Made by a program: the position numbers and the translations under genes
NCBI GenBank assembly: GCA_963809895.1
Contig: CAWELD010000003.1
Span: 1,440,001 to 1,504,000 of the forward strand
DNA from: an uncultured Gemmatimonadales bacterium
GTDB taxonomy: Bacteria; Gemmatimonadota; Gemmatimonadetes; Longimicrobiales; Gaopeijiaceae
Direction: 5' to 3'
Length of the DNA stretch: 64,000 bases
Shown here: in pieces, positions 27,797 through 35,611 of the stretch
Layout: the number at the start of each line of letters is the position of its first letter
Position numbering within the stretch: position 1 is the stretch's first letter
The notes under the pieces: model-generated
What the model was told of the DNA's origin: nothing
Databases searched by the model: none
What the model saw: the letters and a program-made list of their open reading frames with translations, nothing else

Positions 27797-29215
27797 TCAG
27801 GAGGTGATGTAGTCCGCCACGCGGATCCCGTATTTCTCGGGATCGGTGGTCTTCAGGATCGTGCGGGCCTGGCCGTCGGGGGCCGTGTGCGGCTTGGTGA
27901 GGTCCAACGTCACCGGGTCGGCCAGCGGTACGCCCATGGCATCGGAGATGAGCTTCACCGTGGGCAGGTGCAGGAAGCGCGGGTCCGGGTTCACCTCGGC
28001 CACCACCGCCAACTCGAAGGAGTCCAGGATGACCAGCGTTCCCACCGGGAACACGCCGGTGGCGGTGACGAGGGCCTTCACCAGGAGCGGATCGTATCCG
28101 CGGCGCGGGTTGTCCCTCATCTCGCGCAGGACCTGGTCCGGCGGCCAGGGCCGGTACTGGTAGCTGCGCACCGAGGTGCCGGCGTCGAAGCCGTCGGCCA
28201 CCGCCACGATGCGCGAGAAGAGCCCGGGCTTGCGGTCACGGCGGTTCGGAGGATATCCGCTCAGATCCAGCTTCATGTGATGCTCGTAGGCGACCAGCAT
28301 CTGCCGGTAGGGCATGTCGCTGAATCCCACCATGTGGAACAGGAGAAGCAGCCCCTCCGTGGGGTGCTGTTTGAGGATCATCCACTCCTCGTCGTCGAGC
28401 CCGCCGGGCTTGTTGATGATGTCCCGGTCGATCCTCATCTTGCCGATGTCGTGGAAGAGGGCCCCGAGGCCCAGATCGTAGAGCTGCATGCGATCCAGAC
28501 CCAGCCGCTGCCCGATGATGAGGCTGAAGATGCACACGTTCACGCAGTGGGTGAACGTGTACTCGTCGAAGTCCCGGAGGGTGGTCATGGTGAGGATCGA
28601 GGGCTCGTTGGAAAGCACCTGATCCACGATGCTCTGCACCGCCCGCTTCACCTTACGCACGTTCACGGCCCGGCCCAGGCGCACGTCTTCGAGGGCGTCG
28701 CGAGCCACCTTCACGGTCTGCACGTAGGTCCGCTTGGCAGCGGCCAGCGCCTCCTCCTTCTCCTCCTCGGCCACCTCCTTCTCGGGCCGGGTCTCTACGT
28801 GGATGACCGGCGTCCGGTCCATGCGCTCCAGGAAGGCCGCGTACGGGTCGTCTTCGTCGGGCTCGCGCAGAAGGAGCGCCAGGAAGGGCGCCCACTCGTC
28901 GCGGCCGATGCCCGGCAGGACGTCGATGGCGCCGATGCCGTGATCCAGTAGCGTGTGGGCGAAGTTGCCGAAGGTCGCGAAGTTGGAGAGGTCCAACCGC
29001 AGACGGGTCTCGTTGAGGAAGAAGAACTCGCCCACGACCCGGAGCTCCATGCCTTCCTCGACGTCCACCAGCCCGGTGACCAGCGCGTGCAGATCGTCCA
29101 GCGCCTGCTGCACGGTGGCGTTCTCCACCGGATAGAGCTTGAGCGAGCGCAACGCGCCGTAGAAGGCCGCCAACAGGCGGCGTCCCCGCTCCTGGACGCT
29201 CATGGCCGCAGTCAC
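27797..29215 (-). CDS. HD-GYP domain protein (putative cyclic dinucleotide phosphodiesterase)
   Basis: DEYTFTHCVNV, FHDIGK, KPGGL, HPTEG, EHHMKLDLSGYP, IVAVADGFDA. Confidence 0.88.
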   Translation of the reverse strand: MTAAMSVQERGRRLLAAFYGALRSLKLYPVENATVQQALDDLHALVTGLVDVEEGMELRVVGEFFFLNETRLRLDLSNFATFGNFAHTLLDHGIGAIDVLPGIGRDEWAPFLALLLREPDEDDPYAAFLERMDRTPVIHVETRPEKEVAEEEKEEALAAAKRTYVQTVKVARDALEDVRLGRAVNVRKVKRAVQSIVDQVLSNEPSILTMTTLRDFDEYTFTHCVNVCIFSLIIGQRLGLDRMQLYDLGLGALFHDIGKMRIDRDIINKPGGLDDEEWMILKQHPTEGLLLLFHMVGFSDMPYRQMLVAYEHHMKLDLSGYPPNRRDRKPGLFSRIVAVADGFDAGTSVRSYQYRPWPPDQVLREMRDNPRRGYDPLLVKALVTATGVFPVGTLVILDSFELAVVAEVNPDPRFLHLPTVKLISDAMGVPLADPVTLDLTKPHTAPDGQARTILKTTDPEKYGIRVADYITS

Positions 29216-29216
29216 G

Positions 29217-30950
29217 TCACTCGCCTCCGCCCCGGAGCGCCCGGTTCACGGCGCTGCGCACCACGGGATCCTCTTCGCGCACGGCCTCCTCCAGCGCCTG
29301 GTGCGCCTCCGGGAGCCCGACCTTGCCGAGTCCGAGGGCGGCGCAGGCCCTGAGCTCGGCGGCCTCGCGGCGTCCGAGAAATCCGCGGCCGTTCAGGAGG
29401 CGGGCCAGGTAGGGCACCGACGCTTCCTGGCCCACGAGGCCGAAGCTCTCGAAGAAGGCGATCTGCTCGCTCAGGTCGGCGCTGCGAAGCTCACGGCTCT
29501 GGAGCGCGGCCTTGAGGGCGTCGGCGGCCGGGCGGTAGCGCAGCGTGCCCAGCGCCCGCGCCGCGGAGATGCGCACCTCGCGCACCGGATCGTCGAGGGC
29601 GGTGATGAGCCCGCCGGCCACGGTGGAGGCCCGGAGCTCGACCGCCGCTTCCACCGCCGCGAGTCGCACCTCGGGATCCCCGTGTCGGAAGAGGTCCGCC
29701 AGCGCCCCGGTCACGGCGCCCACCTTCATGCGCGCGGCCAGGCGAGCCGCACCGGCCACGATCACCGGGTCGGGGTGCGCCAGCAGCGCGGTGAGCTCCC
29801 GCAGGTGACGGGACGCGATCCCCTCGACGGCCTCGCGCAGGACCGGCTGCAACTCCCGACGCTCGGTGAGCTCGGTGGCTCGCAGCAGCGGGCCCAGCGC
29901 GCCGGCACGGAGGTGTTGCAGGAAGGCCCCGAGCTCCCGGGGACGGGGCGCCAGCGACCCGTCCTCCAGCGCCCGTACCACCTCCTGCATGGTCTCGCCA
30001 CTGCTCAACGCGTCCAGGAGGCGAGTGAGCTGTCCCCGGCGCTCTGCGTCGAGCACGTCGTCGTCGCGCTCCTCCATGCGCGCCAGCTCCTCCAGCAGGC
30101 CCGCGGCGGCGCGCAGGGCGCCCCGGGACAGGAGCGTGGGCAGGAGCGTGTGGAAGATCCCCACGATCTCCGACTGGCGCTCCCGGTGCTCCGACTCCTC
30201 CAGACGATCCAGGAGCGCGGCCAGCACGGCGCCCCGCACGTCCCGCTCCATCTCGCGGGTGATCTCCGCGCGCAGCTCATCCATCTCCCGGGGGTCCAGC
30301 GCGTACAGCGTGGGGTTGAAATCCTCGCGGTTCACCAGCTCCGGCGTGGGGGTCAGCGGGCCCACCGCGCCGGTAGGCCGGCCGTTCTCCACCTCCTCTT
30401 CCAGCACCTGCTGGAGCTGCGTCTGCGACGCCGGCTCCCCGGGCTCGGGAACGTCGACGCCCTCGGCGAGGATGTCGACGTAGAAGTACTTGAGGTATTC
30501 GAGCTCGGCCTCCCAGAGCAGCGTCAGGAGGTCGTCGCCGTCGATGCGGGCCTGGCGCGCCTTCTGGAGGACGCCCAGGAAGATCTCCAGCTCGCCCTCG
30601 ATGCCTGGCAGGAAGGTGAGCTCCCGGACGCCGTCCTTGTAGACCAGGAAGGCCAACGACTCGTTCCTGGACGCGGTGCGGTACACCTCGACGCCTTCGT
30701 AGATGAGCGAGTCCTCCTGGACCGCCACCGTGAGCTCGTCGAGCTCGGTCCACAGATGCTGAAACGCCTCGCGCAGCGCAGACACGAAGCGATGGTAGAC
30801 GGGGTTGTTCTCGTCATAGAGCTGGAACGCTCTGAGCGCCTTGCCCAGCGTGACGAAGAGCGCCCGCACCTCCTCCACCGGGAAGAGGTCTTCCGGCATG
30901 TCCCCGGCGGCGGCGGGAACCGAAGCCGAATCGGCGGGCAGGTCGCTCAC
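29217..30950 (-). CDS. HEAT-repeat protein with uncharacterised N-terminal domain
   Basis: C-terminal HEAT/PBS-like repeats (HPDPVIVAGAARL, HGDPEVRLAAVEA, DDPVREVRISAARALG, EEDPVVRSAVNRAL). Confidence 0.85.
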   Translation of the reverse strand: MSDLPADSASVPAAAGDMPEDLFPVEEVRALFVTLGKALRAFQLYDENNPVYHRFVSALREAFQHLWTELDELTVAVQEDSLIYEGVEVYRTASRNESLAFLVYKDGVRELTFLPGIEGELEIFLGVLQKARQARIDGDDLLTLLWEAELEYLKYFYVDILAEGVDVPEPGEPASQTQLQQVLEEEVENGRPTGAVGPLTPTPELVNREDFNPTLYALDPREMDELRAEITREMERDVRGAVLAALLDRLEESEHRERQSEIVGIFHTLLPTLLSRGALRAAAGLLEELARMEERDDDVLDAERRGQLTRLLDALSSGETMQEVVRALEDGSLAPRPRELGAFLQHLRAGALGPLLRATELTERRELQPVLREAVEGIASRHLRELTALLAHPDPVIVAGAARLAARMKVGAVTGALADLFRHGDPEVRLAAVEAAVELRASTVAGGLITALDDPVREVRISAARALGTLRYRPAADALKAALQSRELRSADLSEQIAFFESFGLVGQEASVPYLARLLNGRGFLGRREAAELRACAALGLGKVGLPEAHQALEEAVREEDPVVRSAVNRALRGGGE

Positions 30951-30960
30951 ACGTCCTCGG

Positions 30961-32172
30961 TCACTGGAGGATCGAGCCTCGGCCCTCGACCCGGGCCACG
31001 TGCGCCACGTCCTTGTCTCCCCGGCCGCTCAGCGACACCAGCACGGGGCCTCGCCCGGCGTGGGACGTCCCCATGGTGAGAACGTGAGCGATGGCGTGGG
31101 CCGTTTCCAGCGCGGGAATGATCCCCTCCAGTCGCGAGAGCCTGTGGAACGCCGACAGCGCGGCCTCGTCCGTGACCGAAACGTACGTCGCCCGACCACT
31201 GTCCTTCAGGTAGGCATGTTCGGGTCCCACGCCCGGATAGTCCAGTCCGGCGGATACGGAGTGAGCCGGTGACACCTGGCCGTCGGCATCCTGGAGAAGA
31301 TAGCTCATGGCCCCGTGCAGGACACCCGGCTCGCCCGCAGACAGCGTCGCCGCGTGGCGGCCCGAGGCGATCCCCTCGCCCGCGGCCTCCACACCCACCA
31401 GCTCGACGCCCTCGTCGGCCACGAAGGCGTGGAAGATCCCCATGGCGTTGGAGCCCCCACCCACACACGCGACCACGGCGGCGGGCAGGCGGCCCTCCAC
31501 GTCCAGGATCTGGGCCCGGGCTTCGACCCCGATCACCGACTGGAGCTCTCGCACGATCTGCGGGAACGGGTGCGGCCCCACCACCGAGCCGATGACGTAG
31601 TGCGTGTCGGCCACGTTGGTGACCCAGTCCCGAAGCGCTTCGTTGGTGGCGTCCTTGAGGGTCTGCGTGCCCGAGGTCACCGGACGCACCTCGGCCCCCA
31701 GCAACTCCATGCGGTAGACGTTGAGCGCCTGCCGCTCCACGTCTTCCGCGCCCATGTACACGACGCAATCGAGGTCGAAGAGCGCACACGCGGTGGCGGT
31801 GGCGACGCCGTGTTGTCCCGCGCCCGTCTCGGCGATGATCCGTCGCTTGCCCATGCGGCGCGCGAGCAGAACCTGGCCCATGGTGTTGTTGATCTTGTGG
31901 GCCCCGGTGTGGTTGAGGTCCTCGCGCTTCAGGTAGATGGGCTCGAGGCCGGCGGCCTCCTCCAGGCGCCGGGCCCGATAGAGGGGCGTGGGTCGCCCCA
32001 CGTAGTCCCGCAGCAGGGCGTCGAGCTCCTCGCCGAAGGCCGGGTCCCGGCGAGCGTCGGCCCAGGCCTTCTCCAGCTCGTCGAGCGCGGTCATCAGCGT
32101 CTCGGGCACGTAGCGCCCACCGAATGTCCCGAAGCGTCCCGTGCGGTCCGCCGACGTCACCGATTCACTCAC
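30961..32172 (-). CDS. trpB: Tryptophan synthase beta chain
   Basis: [59 protein letters not shown]. Start GTG 32172. Confidence 0.97.
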
Positions 32173-32855
32173 GTGGGGTCCTCGTCGTATGCGTTGCGTG
32201 CCATGCGGATGAAGCTGCGAACCCGCCCGGCGTCCTTGATGCCCGGACGGATCTCCACACCGGAGCTCACGTCGACCACGTCGGGCCGGAGCCGGCGTAT
32301 CGCTTCGCCCACGTTGTCCGGCTGCAAGCCGCCGGCCGCGATGAAGGTCAGATTCCCGGGGAACTCGTCGCGCAGAGGCGCCACCAGATCCCACGGGAAT
32401 CGCACTCCCGACCCGCCACGATGCTCCGGGTGCCAGCCGTCCAGAAGAAGGCCGTCCGCCAGGGGGCCGTACAGGTCCAGCGCCTCCCGCACCTCGGCGG
32501 CCGTACGAACGCGGAGCGCCTTCCACAGCCGCCAGGACCCCAGCTCCCGCAGGGCCTCCAGCACCCTTGGGGCTTCGTTGCCGTGCAACTGGAGCACGCT
32601 GGCGCCCGTAGCCCGGGCGAGCTGCGCGGCCCGGGACGGCGTCTCGTCGACCAGCACGCCCACCAGGGGGCGGCCCGTCTCGCCGGGGTAGCGGGTCGCG
32701 AGCCCCGGCTCCACGGACCTGCGAAAACCGGTGGACAGGATCGCACCGAGATAGTCGGCGCCGGCGTGGGCCGCTGCAAGGGCGTCCTCGAGGCGGGTGA
32801 TCCCGCAGATCTTCACCTCGGGACCGAGCCGATCCTCCATCTCCGGGTCAGCCAC
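32169..32855 (-). CDS. trpF: Phosphoribosylanthranilate isomerase
   Basis: [38 protein letters not shown]. Confidence 0.94.
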
Positions 32856-33675
32856 GGACGGTCTCGCTGCGGGCCCGGCCGGCCAGCTCCCGGACCTTCG
32901 CCCCCGGGTCCGGCGCCTTCAGGATGGACTCGCCCACCAGCACGGCGTCCACGCCGGCCTTGCCGAGCCGGGCTACGTCGTCACCGGTACGGATGCCGCT
33001 CTCGGAGACCACCACCACCTCGTCGGGAAGGCGCTCCAGCAGGCCTTCGGTGACGGCGAGATCGGTTCGGAAGGTACGGAGATCTCGATTGTTGATCCCG
33101 ATCACGCGCGCGCCCGAGCGCAGCGCTCGCTCGAGCTCGGTGGCGTCGTGCACCTCCACCAGCGCCGCCATCCCCAGACCCTCCGCCCGTTCCCTGAGAT
33201 CGCGCAGGGGGGCGTCGTCCAGGATGCGCACGATGAGGAGCACCGCGTCGGCCCCGGCGGCCCGGGCCTCATCGACCTGGATCGCTTCCAGGGTGAAGTC
33301 CTTGCGGAGCGCGGGCAGCGGCACGGCGTCGCGCACCGCGGCCAGATCGTGGAGAGAGCCACCGAACCAGGGGCCGTCGGTGAGCACGCTGACGGCGGCC
33401 GCGCCGGAGCGCTCATAGCCCGACGCCAGGTCGGCCGGGTCCAGGTCCGGACGGATGGCCCCCGCCCCCGGCGAGCGGCGCTTCACCTCGGCGATGACCG
33501 ACACCGAGTCACCCCCGGCCAGCGCCCCGGCGAAATCGCGGGCCGCCGGTGCCGCCTCGGCGCGCTCCCGGAGCTCGGCGGCGGCGGGCTTCAACGCCGC
33601 GATCTCGGTGCGCTTCGTCTCGACGATGGCCTGCAGGATGTCGCCCTGCGGCCTCGATCCTTGCGTTTCGGGCAA
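32848..33675 (-). CDS. trpC: Indole-3-glycerol phosphate synthase
   Basis: IAEVKRRSP, SVLTD, LRKDF, GADAVLLI, LVEVH, GINNRDL, SESGI, LVGES. Start taken as TTG 33675 (AAGGA upstream) because the ORF-track start overlaps lexA. Confidence 0.93.
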   Translation of the reverse strand: MPETQGSRPQGDILQAIVETKRTEIAALKPAAAELRERAEAAPAARDFAGALAGGDSVSVIAEVKRRSPGAGAIRPDLDPADLASGYERSGAAAVSVLTDGPWFGGSLHDLAAVRDAVPLPALRKDFTLEAIQVDEARAAGADAVLLIVRILDDAPLRDLRERAEGLGMAALVEVHDATELERALRSGARVIGINNRDLRTFRTDLAVTEGLLERLPDEVVVVSESGIRTGDDVARLGKAGVDAVLVGESILKAPDPGAKVRELAGRARSETVRG

Positions 33676-33708
33676 CGTTCGGGTATCCTTACTTCGGTTC
33701 CTGTTCGG
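33666..33708 (+). promoter_or_regulatory. Two candidate LexA operators (TTCGG-N6-TTCGG direct repeats, near-matches to GTTC-N7-GTTC)
   Basis: tTTCGGgcaacgTTCGG at 33666-33682 and cTTCGGttcctgTTCGG at 33692-33708, immediately upstream of lexA. Confidence 0.6.
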
Positions 33709-33730
33709 TACCCACCGATGGAGGGCACGC

Positions 33731-34342
33731 ATGCCCCTGACCAAGCGTCAGAAAGAGATCCTCGATCACATCAGCGCGTTCATCGAGGAGTGGGGGTACG
33801 CCCCGAGCTTCGAGGAGATCGCCGAGCATTTCGGGTATTCCTCGCTGGCGACGGTGCACGAGCACCTGAGCAATCTGGAGCGCAAGGGATACATACGGAA
33901 GGCCTACAACGAGAGCCGCTCCATCGAGCTCGTGGACCGCGACGGAAGCGGCACCTCGGGCATGGAGCTTCCCCTCCTCGGAAGCGTGGCCGCGGGCCTC
34001 CCCATCGAAGCGGTCGAGGACAACGAGACCCTGAGCGTGCCACCGGACATGGTGCGGCGCAACCGGGAGAACTACGTGCTCCGGGTGCAGGGTGACTCGA
34101 TGATCGACGAGCAGATCCGCGACGGGGACTACATCGTGGTGGCGGCGCAGGACACCGCCGACGACGGGCAGATGGTGGTGGCGCTGGTGGGCGGGGACTC
34201 GGCCACCGTGAAGAAGCTCTACCGCGAGGCGGGCAACCGCATCCGCCTGCAGCCGGCCAACCCCACCATGTCCCCCATCGTGGAAGACGCCCGCAACGTC
34301 CGTATCCAGGGCGTGGTCGTGGGCGTCATCCGCAAGTACTGA
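33731..34342 (+). CDS. lexA: SOS repressor LexA
   Basis: LTKRQKEIL, APSFEEI, SLATVHEHL helix, VAAG cleavage site, GDSM (Ser), TVKK (Lys). RBS GGAGG precedes ATG 33731. Confidence 0.96.
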   Translation: MPLTKRQKEILDHISAFIEEWGYAPSFEEIAEHFGYSSLATVHEHLSNLERKGYIRKAYNESRSIELVDRDGSGTSGMELPLLGSVAAGLPIEAVEDNETLSVPPDMVRRNRENYVLRVQGDSMIDEQIRDGDYIVVAAQDTADDGQMVVALVGGDSATVKKLYREAGNRIRLQPANPTMSPIVEDARNVRIQGVVVGVIRKY

Positions 34343-34512
34343 TGCCCGCCGAGACCGCGCGCCGGCGCACCTTCCTGGTGGGTCGGCTCACGCACCGGAC
34401 CCGGGAGATCCAGTGGGTGGAGCCCCAACCGTCACCGCTCCCGGGGCCGTGGTCGCTCAAGGCGGTGGTGCGGGAGCGCGCCCTGCAGCCCGCGCTCCGG
34501 CTGGTGCGCTGA
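34342..34512 (+). CDS. Unannotated 56-aa protein translationally coupled to lexA, with an SspB-like C-terminal motif
   Basis: TGATG overlap with the lexA stop. MPAETARRRTFLVGRLTHRTREIQWVEPQPSPLPGPWSLKAVVRERALQPALRLVR*. Nearly all third codon positions are G/C. Below the ORF-track length cutoff. Confidence 0.7.
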   Translation: MPAETARRRTFLVGRLTHRTREIQWVEPQPSPLPGPWSLKAVVRERALQPALRLVR

Positions 34513-34525
34513 CCGCCGCTGGTCA

Positions 34526-34547
34526 GGGGCAATCCCGAGGATTCCCC
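34526..34547. terminator. Hairpin between the convergent lexA unit and trpD
   Basis: GGGG-C-AATCC-CGA-GGATT-CCCC, no U-tract. Confidence 0.35.
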
Positions 34548-34555
34548 GGCGGCCT

Positions 34556-35611
34556 TCAGGCGTTGGAGGCTGCAGCCAGCGCGTCGAGCTTGGACAGCGC
34601 AGCGCCCGAATCGATGCTTTCGCGGGCGACCGTCACACCCTCCTCGAGAGACGCGGCGGCGTCTGCCACGTAGATGGCCGCGCCGGCGTTGAGGAGCACG
34701 GCCGAGCGCGCGGCGCCCGACTCCTTCCCCTCGAGCACCCGCCGGATGAGGGCGGCGTTGTCCTGGGGCTCCCCTCCCCGCAGTCCCTCGAGCCCGTGCG
34801 GCTCCAGACCCAGGCCAGCCGGCGTCACCTCGCGCTCCACCACGCCGTCGGGGCCGAGCTCCGAGACCTGTGACGGACCGCTGGGGCTGAGCTCGTCCAT
34901 GCCCGGCGAACCGTGCACCACCAGCGCCCGCGTGTGACCCAGGGCGGCCAGCGCCTCCACGATGAGGGTCCGCAGCGCCGGGTCGGCCACGCCCACCACC
35001 TGCCGGCGCGCGCCCGCGGGGTTGGTGAGGGGTCCCAGGATGTTCATGATGGTGGCGATTCCCAGGCCACGACGGACCGGCGCCACGTGCCGCATGGCCG
35101 GGTGAAGAAGCGGTGCGAACATGAAGACGATCCCCACCTCGGCGAGGATCTCGCCCATGCGCTCGGGCGTCAGATCGATGCGCACGCCCAGCGCCTCCAG
35201 CACGTCGGCGCTGCCACTGCGCGAAGTGAAGGAGCGGTTACCGTGCTTGGCCATGCGCACCCCGGCGCCGGCGGCCACCAGCGCCGCAGCGGTGGAGATG
35301 TTGAAGGTGGTCACGGCGCCACCGCCGGTGCCGGCGGTGTCCACCAGCGCGTCGGGATCGGCCGACTCCACGGGAACCATGGCGTTGCGCAGCGCCCGCA
35401 CGCCGCCCGCGACCTCGGCAGGAGTGATGCCCTTGGTTCGGAGCCCCATGAGCAGGGCGGCCATCTCGATGTCGGTGGCCACCCCGGCCATGAAGGCGTC
35501 GAAGGCCTCCTCGGCCTCGCCGATGGTCAGGTCCGCGCCGCCGGAGACCTTGAGGAGGAGGGCCGGAAAGTCCGGAAGCGGGGCCTCGGTGGGCGGAGGC
35601 GTCTGCGCCAT
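34556..35611 (-). CDS. trpD: Anthranilate phosphoribosyltransferase
   Basis: DTAGTGGG, FNIST, KHGNRS...SGSADVLEALG, NILGPLTNP, GMDELS. Confidence 0.96.
   Translation of the reverse strand: MAQTPPPTEAPLPDFPALLLKVSGGADLTIGEAEEAFDAFMAGVATDIEMAALLMGLRTKGITPAEVAGGVRALRNAMVPVESADPDALVDTAGTGGGAVTTFNISTAAALVAAGAGVRMAKHGNRSFTSRSGSADVLEALGVRIDLTPERMGEILAEVGIVFMFAPLLHPAMRHVAPVRRGLGIATIMNILGPLTNPAGARRQVVGVADPALRTLIVEALAALGHTRALVVHGSPGMDELSPSGPSQVSELGPDGVVEREVTPAGLGLEPHGLEGLRGGEPQDNAALIRRVLEGKESGAARSAVLLNAGAAIYVADAAASLEEGVTVARESIDSGAALSKLDALAAASNA

Follow-up and report, generated by a model that had tools for sequence, protein, structure and literature searches.

SulA, YneA and SidA are small SOS division inhibitors that are proteolytically short-lived, and SspB in E. 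coli delivers a LexA fragment. Small SOS-linked accessory proteins are already known as a kind, and a phage provides an example of a small protein that tunes LexA, with a counterpart for a LexA-like repressor in Acinetobacter. The gp7 protein of phage GIL01 is reported to bind LexA, to strengthen its binding to DNA and to inhibit the cleavage that RecA mediates (PMC4551915), and Acinetobacter DdrR is described as a co-repressor of UmuDAb (PMC11332147). Here, we describe a 56-aa microprotein of an undescribed family, which is encoded directly behind lexA in a Gemmatimonadota genome.

In the window (the whole 64,000-nucleotide stretch that was analyzed), lexA occupies positions 33731..34342 on the + strand, is preceded by a GGAGG ribosome site at 33720, and encodes a protein of 203 aa with LexA_DNA_bind and Peptidase_S24 matches above the Pfam cut-off. 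The microprotein gene follows at 34342..34512 (+) and is identified by its coding score and its homologs. The first letter of its ATG is at the same time the last letter of the lexA stop codon TGA (TGATG, 34340-34344); the initial annotation described an ORF that starts in the lexA stop and ends in QPALRLVR, and both features are confirmed for the 56-aa frame. The product comprises a conserved core (residues 8-44; 34363..34473, +), which is delimited by the alignment, column counts and an AlphaFold2 monomer, and a tail, PALRLVR (34489..34509, +), which resembles the ClpX-binding tail of E. coli SspB and is found in its own genus only. The gene is present as a single copy in this genome. The convergent neighbor is trpD (34556..35611, - strand, assigned by Pfam), which was not found behind the ORF in the retrieved stretches of several relatives (among them L002 and L004-L006) and is not part of the lexA-microprotein module. 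The gap between the genes (34505-34565) shows modest RNA folding (z -1.9). Further upstream in the window (27797-32526), HEAT-repeat-like and HD-GYP-like genes lie downstream of trpB.

A comparison with the described systems reveals partial likenesses. As in the case of gp7, a small protein is involved and an action on LexA is proposed by analogy; however, gp7 is phage-encoded, whereas the microprotein is chromosomal and has neither a PHROG match nor a locus from viral collections. DdrR is likewise small, confined to a lineage and linked to a LexA-like repressor, but no family match is observed, and the phylum and the repressor differ. No homology to gp7 or DdrR was found in the Pfam, NCBIfam, PHROG and PDB searches, which compare at the level of whole libraries; a model that consists of a hairpin only also offers little to a fold search. 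SOS control and a probably short lifetime are shared with SulA, SosA, YneA and SidA, and the H-ending tails of some family members appear to recall the SulA degron; in contrast, no sequence or fold match exists, no membrane segment is apparent by eye, and the microprotein is much shorter than SulA. The C-terminal heptapeptide PALR[LV]V[RK] is common to the microprotein and SspB, and a ClpX zinc-binding domain is present in this host, but the microprotein lacks the SspB domain (PF04386), has 56 rather than 165 aa and sits in the lexA operon, and the tail is missing from most members of its family. The small subunits of UmuD and mutasome type (YqjX, ImuB-C; reported in PMC12926913) are similar in their clamp- and protease-type short motifs, and a possibly related ORF of Glassbacteria precedes a dinB-like gene. 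The microprotein differs from these subunits in that it has no S24 similarity and does not track Y-family polymerases, and the imuB-like gene of this genome has its own separate small ORF behind it. In the available part of PMC12926913, no mention of a Gemmatimonad or of lexA was found.

The 56-aa ORF is a real protein-coding gene that is under selection and is kept behind lexA. Its GC3 is 0.95, and the codon log-odds trained on this genome are 16.0 in frame, whereas the five remaining frames score between -3 and -53, which bears out the host-like coding character noted previously. Of 6840 windows of 56 codons taken from intergenic DNA (mean -22, sd 15), 1.5% score as high. In pairwise comparisons of 26 homologs, nucleotide identity at codon positions 1, 2 and 3 is 0.57, 0.66 and 0.43, respectively, and 3121 of 5757 amino-acid-identical pairs have differing codons. 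For each of the invariant residues G14, G35 and P36, all four synonymous codons are used among these homologs, which indicates that selection acts on the protein. The starts of the homologs lie at -4, -1, +1, +10, +11, +13, +14, +15, +22 and further relative to the lexA stop, with a spacing of up to ~480 nt. The overlap between the start and the lexA stop recurs in two families of the order (f1 and f3), and several relatives have their own GGAG site before the start. Because these starts fall in all three frames, a readthrough or frameshift extension of LexA is ruled out. Additionally, 13 RNA runs were compared, which share 4-5% of words and contain no own-strain sequence; for the four that were aligned at 80% likeness, none of the pieces listed spans both lexA and the ORF.

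With clusters formed at 50% identity, a profile of the 26 homologs matches up to 264 of them at E values of up to 1e-3 and 63 at 1e-10; a word-based search from the single microprotein gave 1 match only. False matches (P0004, L019, L060, L287) were removed before counting, and all tallies over 149 clusters refer to the best 150 of the 264 minus one false repeat protein (P0004, 1809 aa). No family match was found in Pfam, PDB sequence, Foldseek, VIA or ESM Atlas searches, only single-member matches at E 0.02-0.08 were obtained from NCBIfam and PHROGs, and viral contigs and phage collections yielded no microprotein locus (one stretch passed tblastn, with no locus). Fused forms are absent among 8000 scored candidates of 248-2000 aa, a range that does not extend to intermediate lengths. 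No published description of the family was found in the literature searched, which included few subscription journals and no supplements. The family is undescribed, and the earlier statement to that effect holds with respect to Pfam, NCBIfam, PHROG and PDB.

Among 401 genomes of the phylum, 31 contain a match. Within the order, the gene is present in 18 of 70, 3 of 4 and 6 of 7 genomes of the respective families (own genome left out); outside the order, it is found in 2 of 30 genomes of one family and in 0 of 166 and 1 of 95 genomes of the two largest other families, and the lone match among the 95 is doubtful and without lexA. Judged from these sequences, the family is mostly restricted to Longimicrobiales (Gemmatimonadota). 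At 59 lexA loci of relatives (own included), the ORF is full-length in 42, hairpin-only in 4 and absent in 12, and 1 ends at a contig edge, so the conserved ORF that was expected behind lexA in relatives is indeed present. A second set of 80 lexA loci contains 35 full-length, 14 hairpin-only and 27 absent cases and 4 contig edges, and none of 40 further lexA loci (39 outside the order) lies above the profile threshold. In a LexA tree of 56 rows, from which short LexA fragments were left out, the microprotein occurs in all three families, and its absence needs about 5 changes, of which at least 3 are forced by well-supported branches. The microprotein is probably ancestral to the order and was then lost repeatedly.

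The linkage to lexA is tight. lexA lies directly upstream in 28 of 30 loci, with one contig edge and one spurious match as the exceptions, and upstream in 29 of 30 loci of another set, the exception being a weak match without the hairpin; the two sets overlap, and both include this genome. Among metagenome loci that were retrieved with no criterion other than the peptide motif, lexA is upstream in 20 of 21. All credible loci with upstream DNA sit behind lexA. One genome additionally carries a second, divergent lexA-like gene with 47% identity (L264, G051:C1:2705703-2706269).

An unannotated ORF of 55-60 aa is found behind lexA in another class, one member of which is Candidatus Glassbacteria, at 10 of 11 loci (L226-L229, L231-L236), and a dinB-like gene is next in 9. 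This ORF has 41 homologs and no Pfam match; its hairpin (LVAYGRIQKGR..C.LV.LD) looks similar and has a basic segment behind it. Comparison of the two families by hhalign gives P 0.013 and a probability of 3%, with weaker values in repeat comparisons, and the cross-HMM scores are near those of shuffles. On the basis of the sequences, the Glassbacteria ORF is possibly homologous to the microprotein family.

The conserved core is ~37 aa long, has a median net charge of +4 (149 clusters listed) and follows the consensus R-x-x-F-[AVL]-V-G-R, a second strand and then P-[IFL]-P-G-P-W-x-L-x-A-V-[VIF]. G14, G35 and P36 are present in all 149 clusters listed, and F11 and A41 are present in 143 of these; the PGPW segment is the most conserved part. 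The short N-terminal part and the Pro-rich linker of the initial annotation together form the conserved core, and the latter segment is thus not a linker. The AlphaFold2 monomer, which was obtained from 149 sequences, builds only a hairpin (12-16 and 21-25), with the remaining chain unpacked (pLDDT 76, pTM 0.40), which suggests that the core may fold on a partner or into an oligomer. Hairpin-only variants (L142, L145-L147, L149, L153, L154, L108-L110, L112, L116 and L117) keep RIPFAVGR..EVVLVGE and have an Arg/Pro-rich tail in place of the PGPW strand. The loss of this strand in these variants suggests that the hairpin may be the minimal unit.

The tail PALRLVR differs only slightly from PALRVVK of E. 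coli SspB, the RPALRVVK ending of which is confirmed. It is not commonplace, since the strict pattern L[RH][LIV][VI][RK]? ends 0 of the 4114 predicted proteins of at least 100 aa in this genome. However, this tail is present in only 10 of 42 full-length ORFs of relatives, all of the own genus, and has been lost in four genomes of that genus (G001, G004, G007, G009); 52 of the 149 clusters listed stop at most 4 residues past the core and thus have no tail. The tail is therefore not conserved at the family level, where the wider pattern L[RKHQE][LIV][VIL]x0-3 ends 16 of the 149 clusters listed (14 of the 4114 genome proteins), and the idea that an XB tail defines the module is not borne out. Other endings recur as well: [VIL]H terminates 21 of the 149 clusters listed (11 of 4114 genome proteins), and QLxLF is found near the end of 4 (0 of 4114). 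The 90 listed clusters with tails of at least 8 residues include 20 with [VIL]H, 16 with an LRLV-type ending, 4 that end in QLxL[FL], 4 that contain V[LI]PF and 46 without any named motif. The strict forms QLxLF or Qx[SD]LF occur outside the core, at either terminus, in 10 of 148 members listed (shuffle mean 0.02, max 1). These enrichments are indicative only, as the patterns were picked after inspection and the clusters are kin.

QLxLF is reported as the canonical beta-clamp motif (PMC11791011), and x-L/I-L/I/V-H, with TVH and TLH as examples, is reported as a Lon degron that is shared by SulA (PMC11986505). The strict Lon consensus x[LI][LIV]H is present in 3 of the 149 clusters listed, and the present protein, which ends in Arg, does not match it. 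A terminal Arg is reported to be disfavored by Lon (PMC11986505), which indicates that LRLVR is not a variant of the Lon H-degron. As far as can be read from the sequences, the SspB-like tail is one of several interchangeable endings; binding of this genus's tail to the ClpX zinc domain is slightly favored.

A sigma70-type promoter of lexA is predicted at 33661..33689 (+), with a -35 element TTGCGT at 33661 and a -10 element TATCCT at 33684, and the position of these elements is conserved among the upstream regions of lexA genes. The direct repeat TTCGG-N6-TTCGG is present between the two elements (33667..33682, +) and again downstream of the -10 (33693..33708, +). The pattern TTCG[GC]-N6-TTCG[GC] is observed in 134 of 145 lexA upstream windows, and the double box is observed in 38 of 41 genomes, with 0 for the reversed-pattern control; a TTCGC variant of the box occurs in the other class. 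This genome contains 28 exact copies, 21 of which are intergenic. The best sites precede the imuB-like gene, dnaE2, uvrA, a radical-SAM gene, mraZ, DinB-family genes and ribonucleotide reductase, and a one-letter variant precedes recA (boxes before imuB-like, dnaE2, uvrA and recA on G000:C3 at 1379736-1379772, 1384958, 2081468 and 372216). The 28 copies with spacer 6 are not above those with spacers 4 and 7 (36 and 33), and the case for an operator therefore rests on position and conservation, not abundance. TTCGG-N6-TTCGG is a candidate SOS operator to which we infer that LexA binds, and no description of it was found in the same searched literature. As the double repeat overlaps the lexA promoter and recurs before uvrA, dnaE2 and the imuB-like gene, the microprotein is probably damage-induced, and the damage induction that the initial annotation proposed gains support from this shared promoter element.

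The reading that we prefer, at a probability of roughly 0.3, is an SOS accessory peptide of short lifetime, which takes up its fold on a partner (LexA being the leading guess) and carries lineage-specific degron tails. The microprotein gene very likely shares a transcript with lexA, driven by a promoter that LexA autorepresses, and the peptide would thus be made after DNA damage. Its working part is probably the basic core of ~37 aa, which would have no hydrophobic core alone and would add beta-strands to its partner. Its termini would carry short, exchangeable motifs by which lifetime or location is determined; these would resemble a ClpX-docking motif in this genus and a Lon H-degron in other genera, and two families would have none. 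LexA itself is a tentative choice of partner. The peptide made alongside fresh LexA would bind the LexA C-terminal domain, perhaps at the acidic surface that is engaged by RecA filaments, and, in the manner of phage gp7, would dampen or adjust renewed cleavage during the period in which LexA builds up again. After the return of repression, the peptide would be cleared by way of its degron tail. LexA is favored because of the unbroken linkage, the recurrent start-stop overlap, the match of a basic core to an acidic LexA surface (an acidic LexA cluster is reported to meet a basic RecA cluster; PMC9926225), and the precedents of gp7 and DdrR.

Against LexA as the partner, the adjacency is fully explained by a need for SOS control, as a dinB-like gene also directly follows lexA elsewhere in the phylum, in families other than these (L203, L205, L207). 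The absence of the gene at 12 of 59 lexA loci and the spacing of up to ~480 nt weaken strict stoichiometric coupling. Frequent loss or truncation of the gene also counts against LexA, as does the lack of profile similarity to it. Covariation between the core and LexA (67 triplets) reaches a maximum Z of 6.2, with 8 of 3710 pairs at Z>4, and is not clearly above that of the TrpD control (5.1; 6 of 3745). By eye, the LexA cleavage-site and C-terminal segments are alike with and without the microprotein gene. The microprotein was also considered as a LexA fragment, a mimic or a degenerate S24 piece (xVGR strand, AVVR end), which was rejected at an hhalign probability of 0.1% over 1 column.

LexA is about level with a division or replication protein as the target. 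In the latter case, which is equally tentative, the microprotein would be an unstable checkpoint or replisome peptide in the role of SulA, SidA or YneA, the core of which binds the division or replication protein and the tails of which give turnover or clamp localization. The resemblance of the H-ending tails to the Lon degron reported for SulA (PMC11986505), the strict clamp-type motifs outside the core, and the possibly related Glassbacteria ORF with its dinB-like neighbor are consistent with such an effector. However, that ORF is only a possible homolog, the clamp motifs and the strict x[LI][LIV]H ending are confined to small minorities of the members listed, the core has no transmembrane-like hydrophobic stretch by eye, and four gene-bearing genomes (G038, G046, G047, G048) have no Y-family polymerase match. 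An obligate TLS/Y-polymerase subunit is disfavored because these four genomes (MAGs 94-99% complete) show no PF00817 match. A binder of the RecA filament or of nucleic acid, such as a DinI-/RecX-like modulator or a basic ssDNA/RNA-binding hairpin, would agree with a small, SOS-linked and basic protein with conserved aromatic residues, but it is rather improbable: groove binders are reported to show acidic patches to the basic RecA patch (PMC9926225), whereas the core is basic, and no similarity to any Pfam family is observed. The least probable explanation is a cis-acting or nearly dispensable ORF, the translation of which, for example, stabilizes the lexA mRNA or protects it against transcription that converges from trpD. 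This explanation would fit the convergent trpD and the frequency with which the gene is lost (27 of 80 loci) or reduced to its hairpin (14 of 80), but residues are conserved across three families while synonymous codons change freely, and the gene is also kept at loci with no trpD found close by.

The initial annotation favored a ClpX micro-adaptor or ClpX competitor with the XB tail as its functional element, which we consider unlikely. The tail is near-identical to that of E. coli SspB, fits the LKxh-type zinc-domain motif reported in PMC7226468 and is kept after linkers of very different length (L013, L015). The ClpX zinc-binding domain of this genome is 52% identical to that of E. coli over 60 aa, and Lon is also present. 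SspB was not found in this genome or in 61 genomes of the order by a search that was positive in E. coli and Caulobacter, and the SspB domain (PF04386) matches neither this protein nor the 26 members. Synthetic bait-linker-XB peptides (CLIPPERs) are reported to degrade targets (PMC12373786). In contrast, the look-alike C-terminal motif of RssB is reported not to bind the zinc domain (PMC7226468), and the absence of the tail from most members, including some of the own genus, leaves a family-wide ClpX micro-adaptor unsupported. By analogy, a genus-level adaptor may exist, given that synthetic CLIPPERs work and that SspB delivers a LexA fragment. A further version, which is about as unlikely, is a natural minimal bait-and-anchor degrader, the core of which would grip LexA or a LexA cleavage fragment and the interchangeable tails of which would deliver it to the machine that the respective lineage employs, with LRLVR for the ClpX zinc domain, xxH for Lon and QLxLF for the sliding clamp; if true, a chromosomal, lexA-coupled feedback peptide would stand in for SspB.

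Should LexA be the partner of the short-lived accessory peptide, a chromosomal peptide of ~40 residues in the lexA operon would add a new level of feedback to the SOS response and provide a compact means of probing LexA cleavage, which is a target for suppressing resistance evolution. Even with another partner, an undescribed family of up to 264 clusters that combines one core with alternative protease- and clamp-type motifs provides a clean case for testing motif swapping. Additionally, a candidate operator and regulon of the SOS response in Gemmatimonadota emerge from the analysis.

Several loci that carry the candidate operator have features of their own. Behind the imuB-like gene, which has no obvious catalytic motifs, lie a small ORF, a gene that is recX-like by eye and the boxed dnaE2 (L213, L225:78-425, L214:1-3426). 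By eye, the small ORF resembles ImuB-C/DUF6504. The locus fits the DnaE2-iPolY-ImuBC-RecA type reported in PMC12926913. Two boxes lie ~215-240 nt upstream of mraZ (G000:C3:1536641-1536682), a sequence-level hint that the division gene cluster may be under direct LexA control. Two near-identical DUF222 genes (G000:C3:2236136, 2556522) each have a box ~130 nt upstream, which suggests that this pair may be a damage-inducible mobile element.
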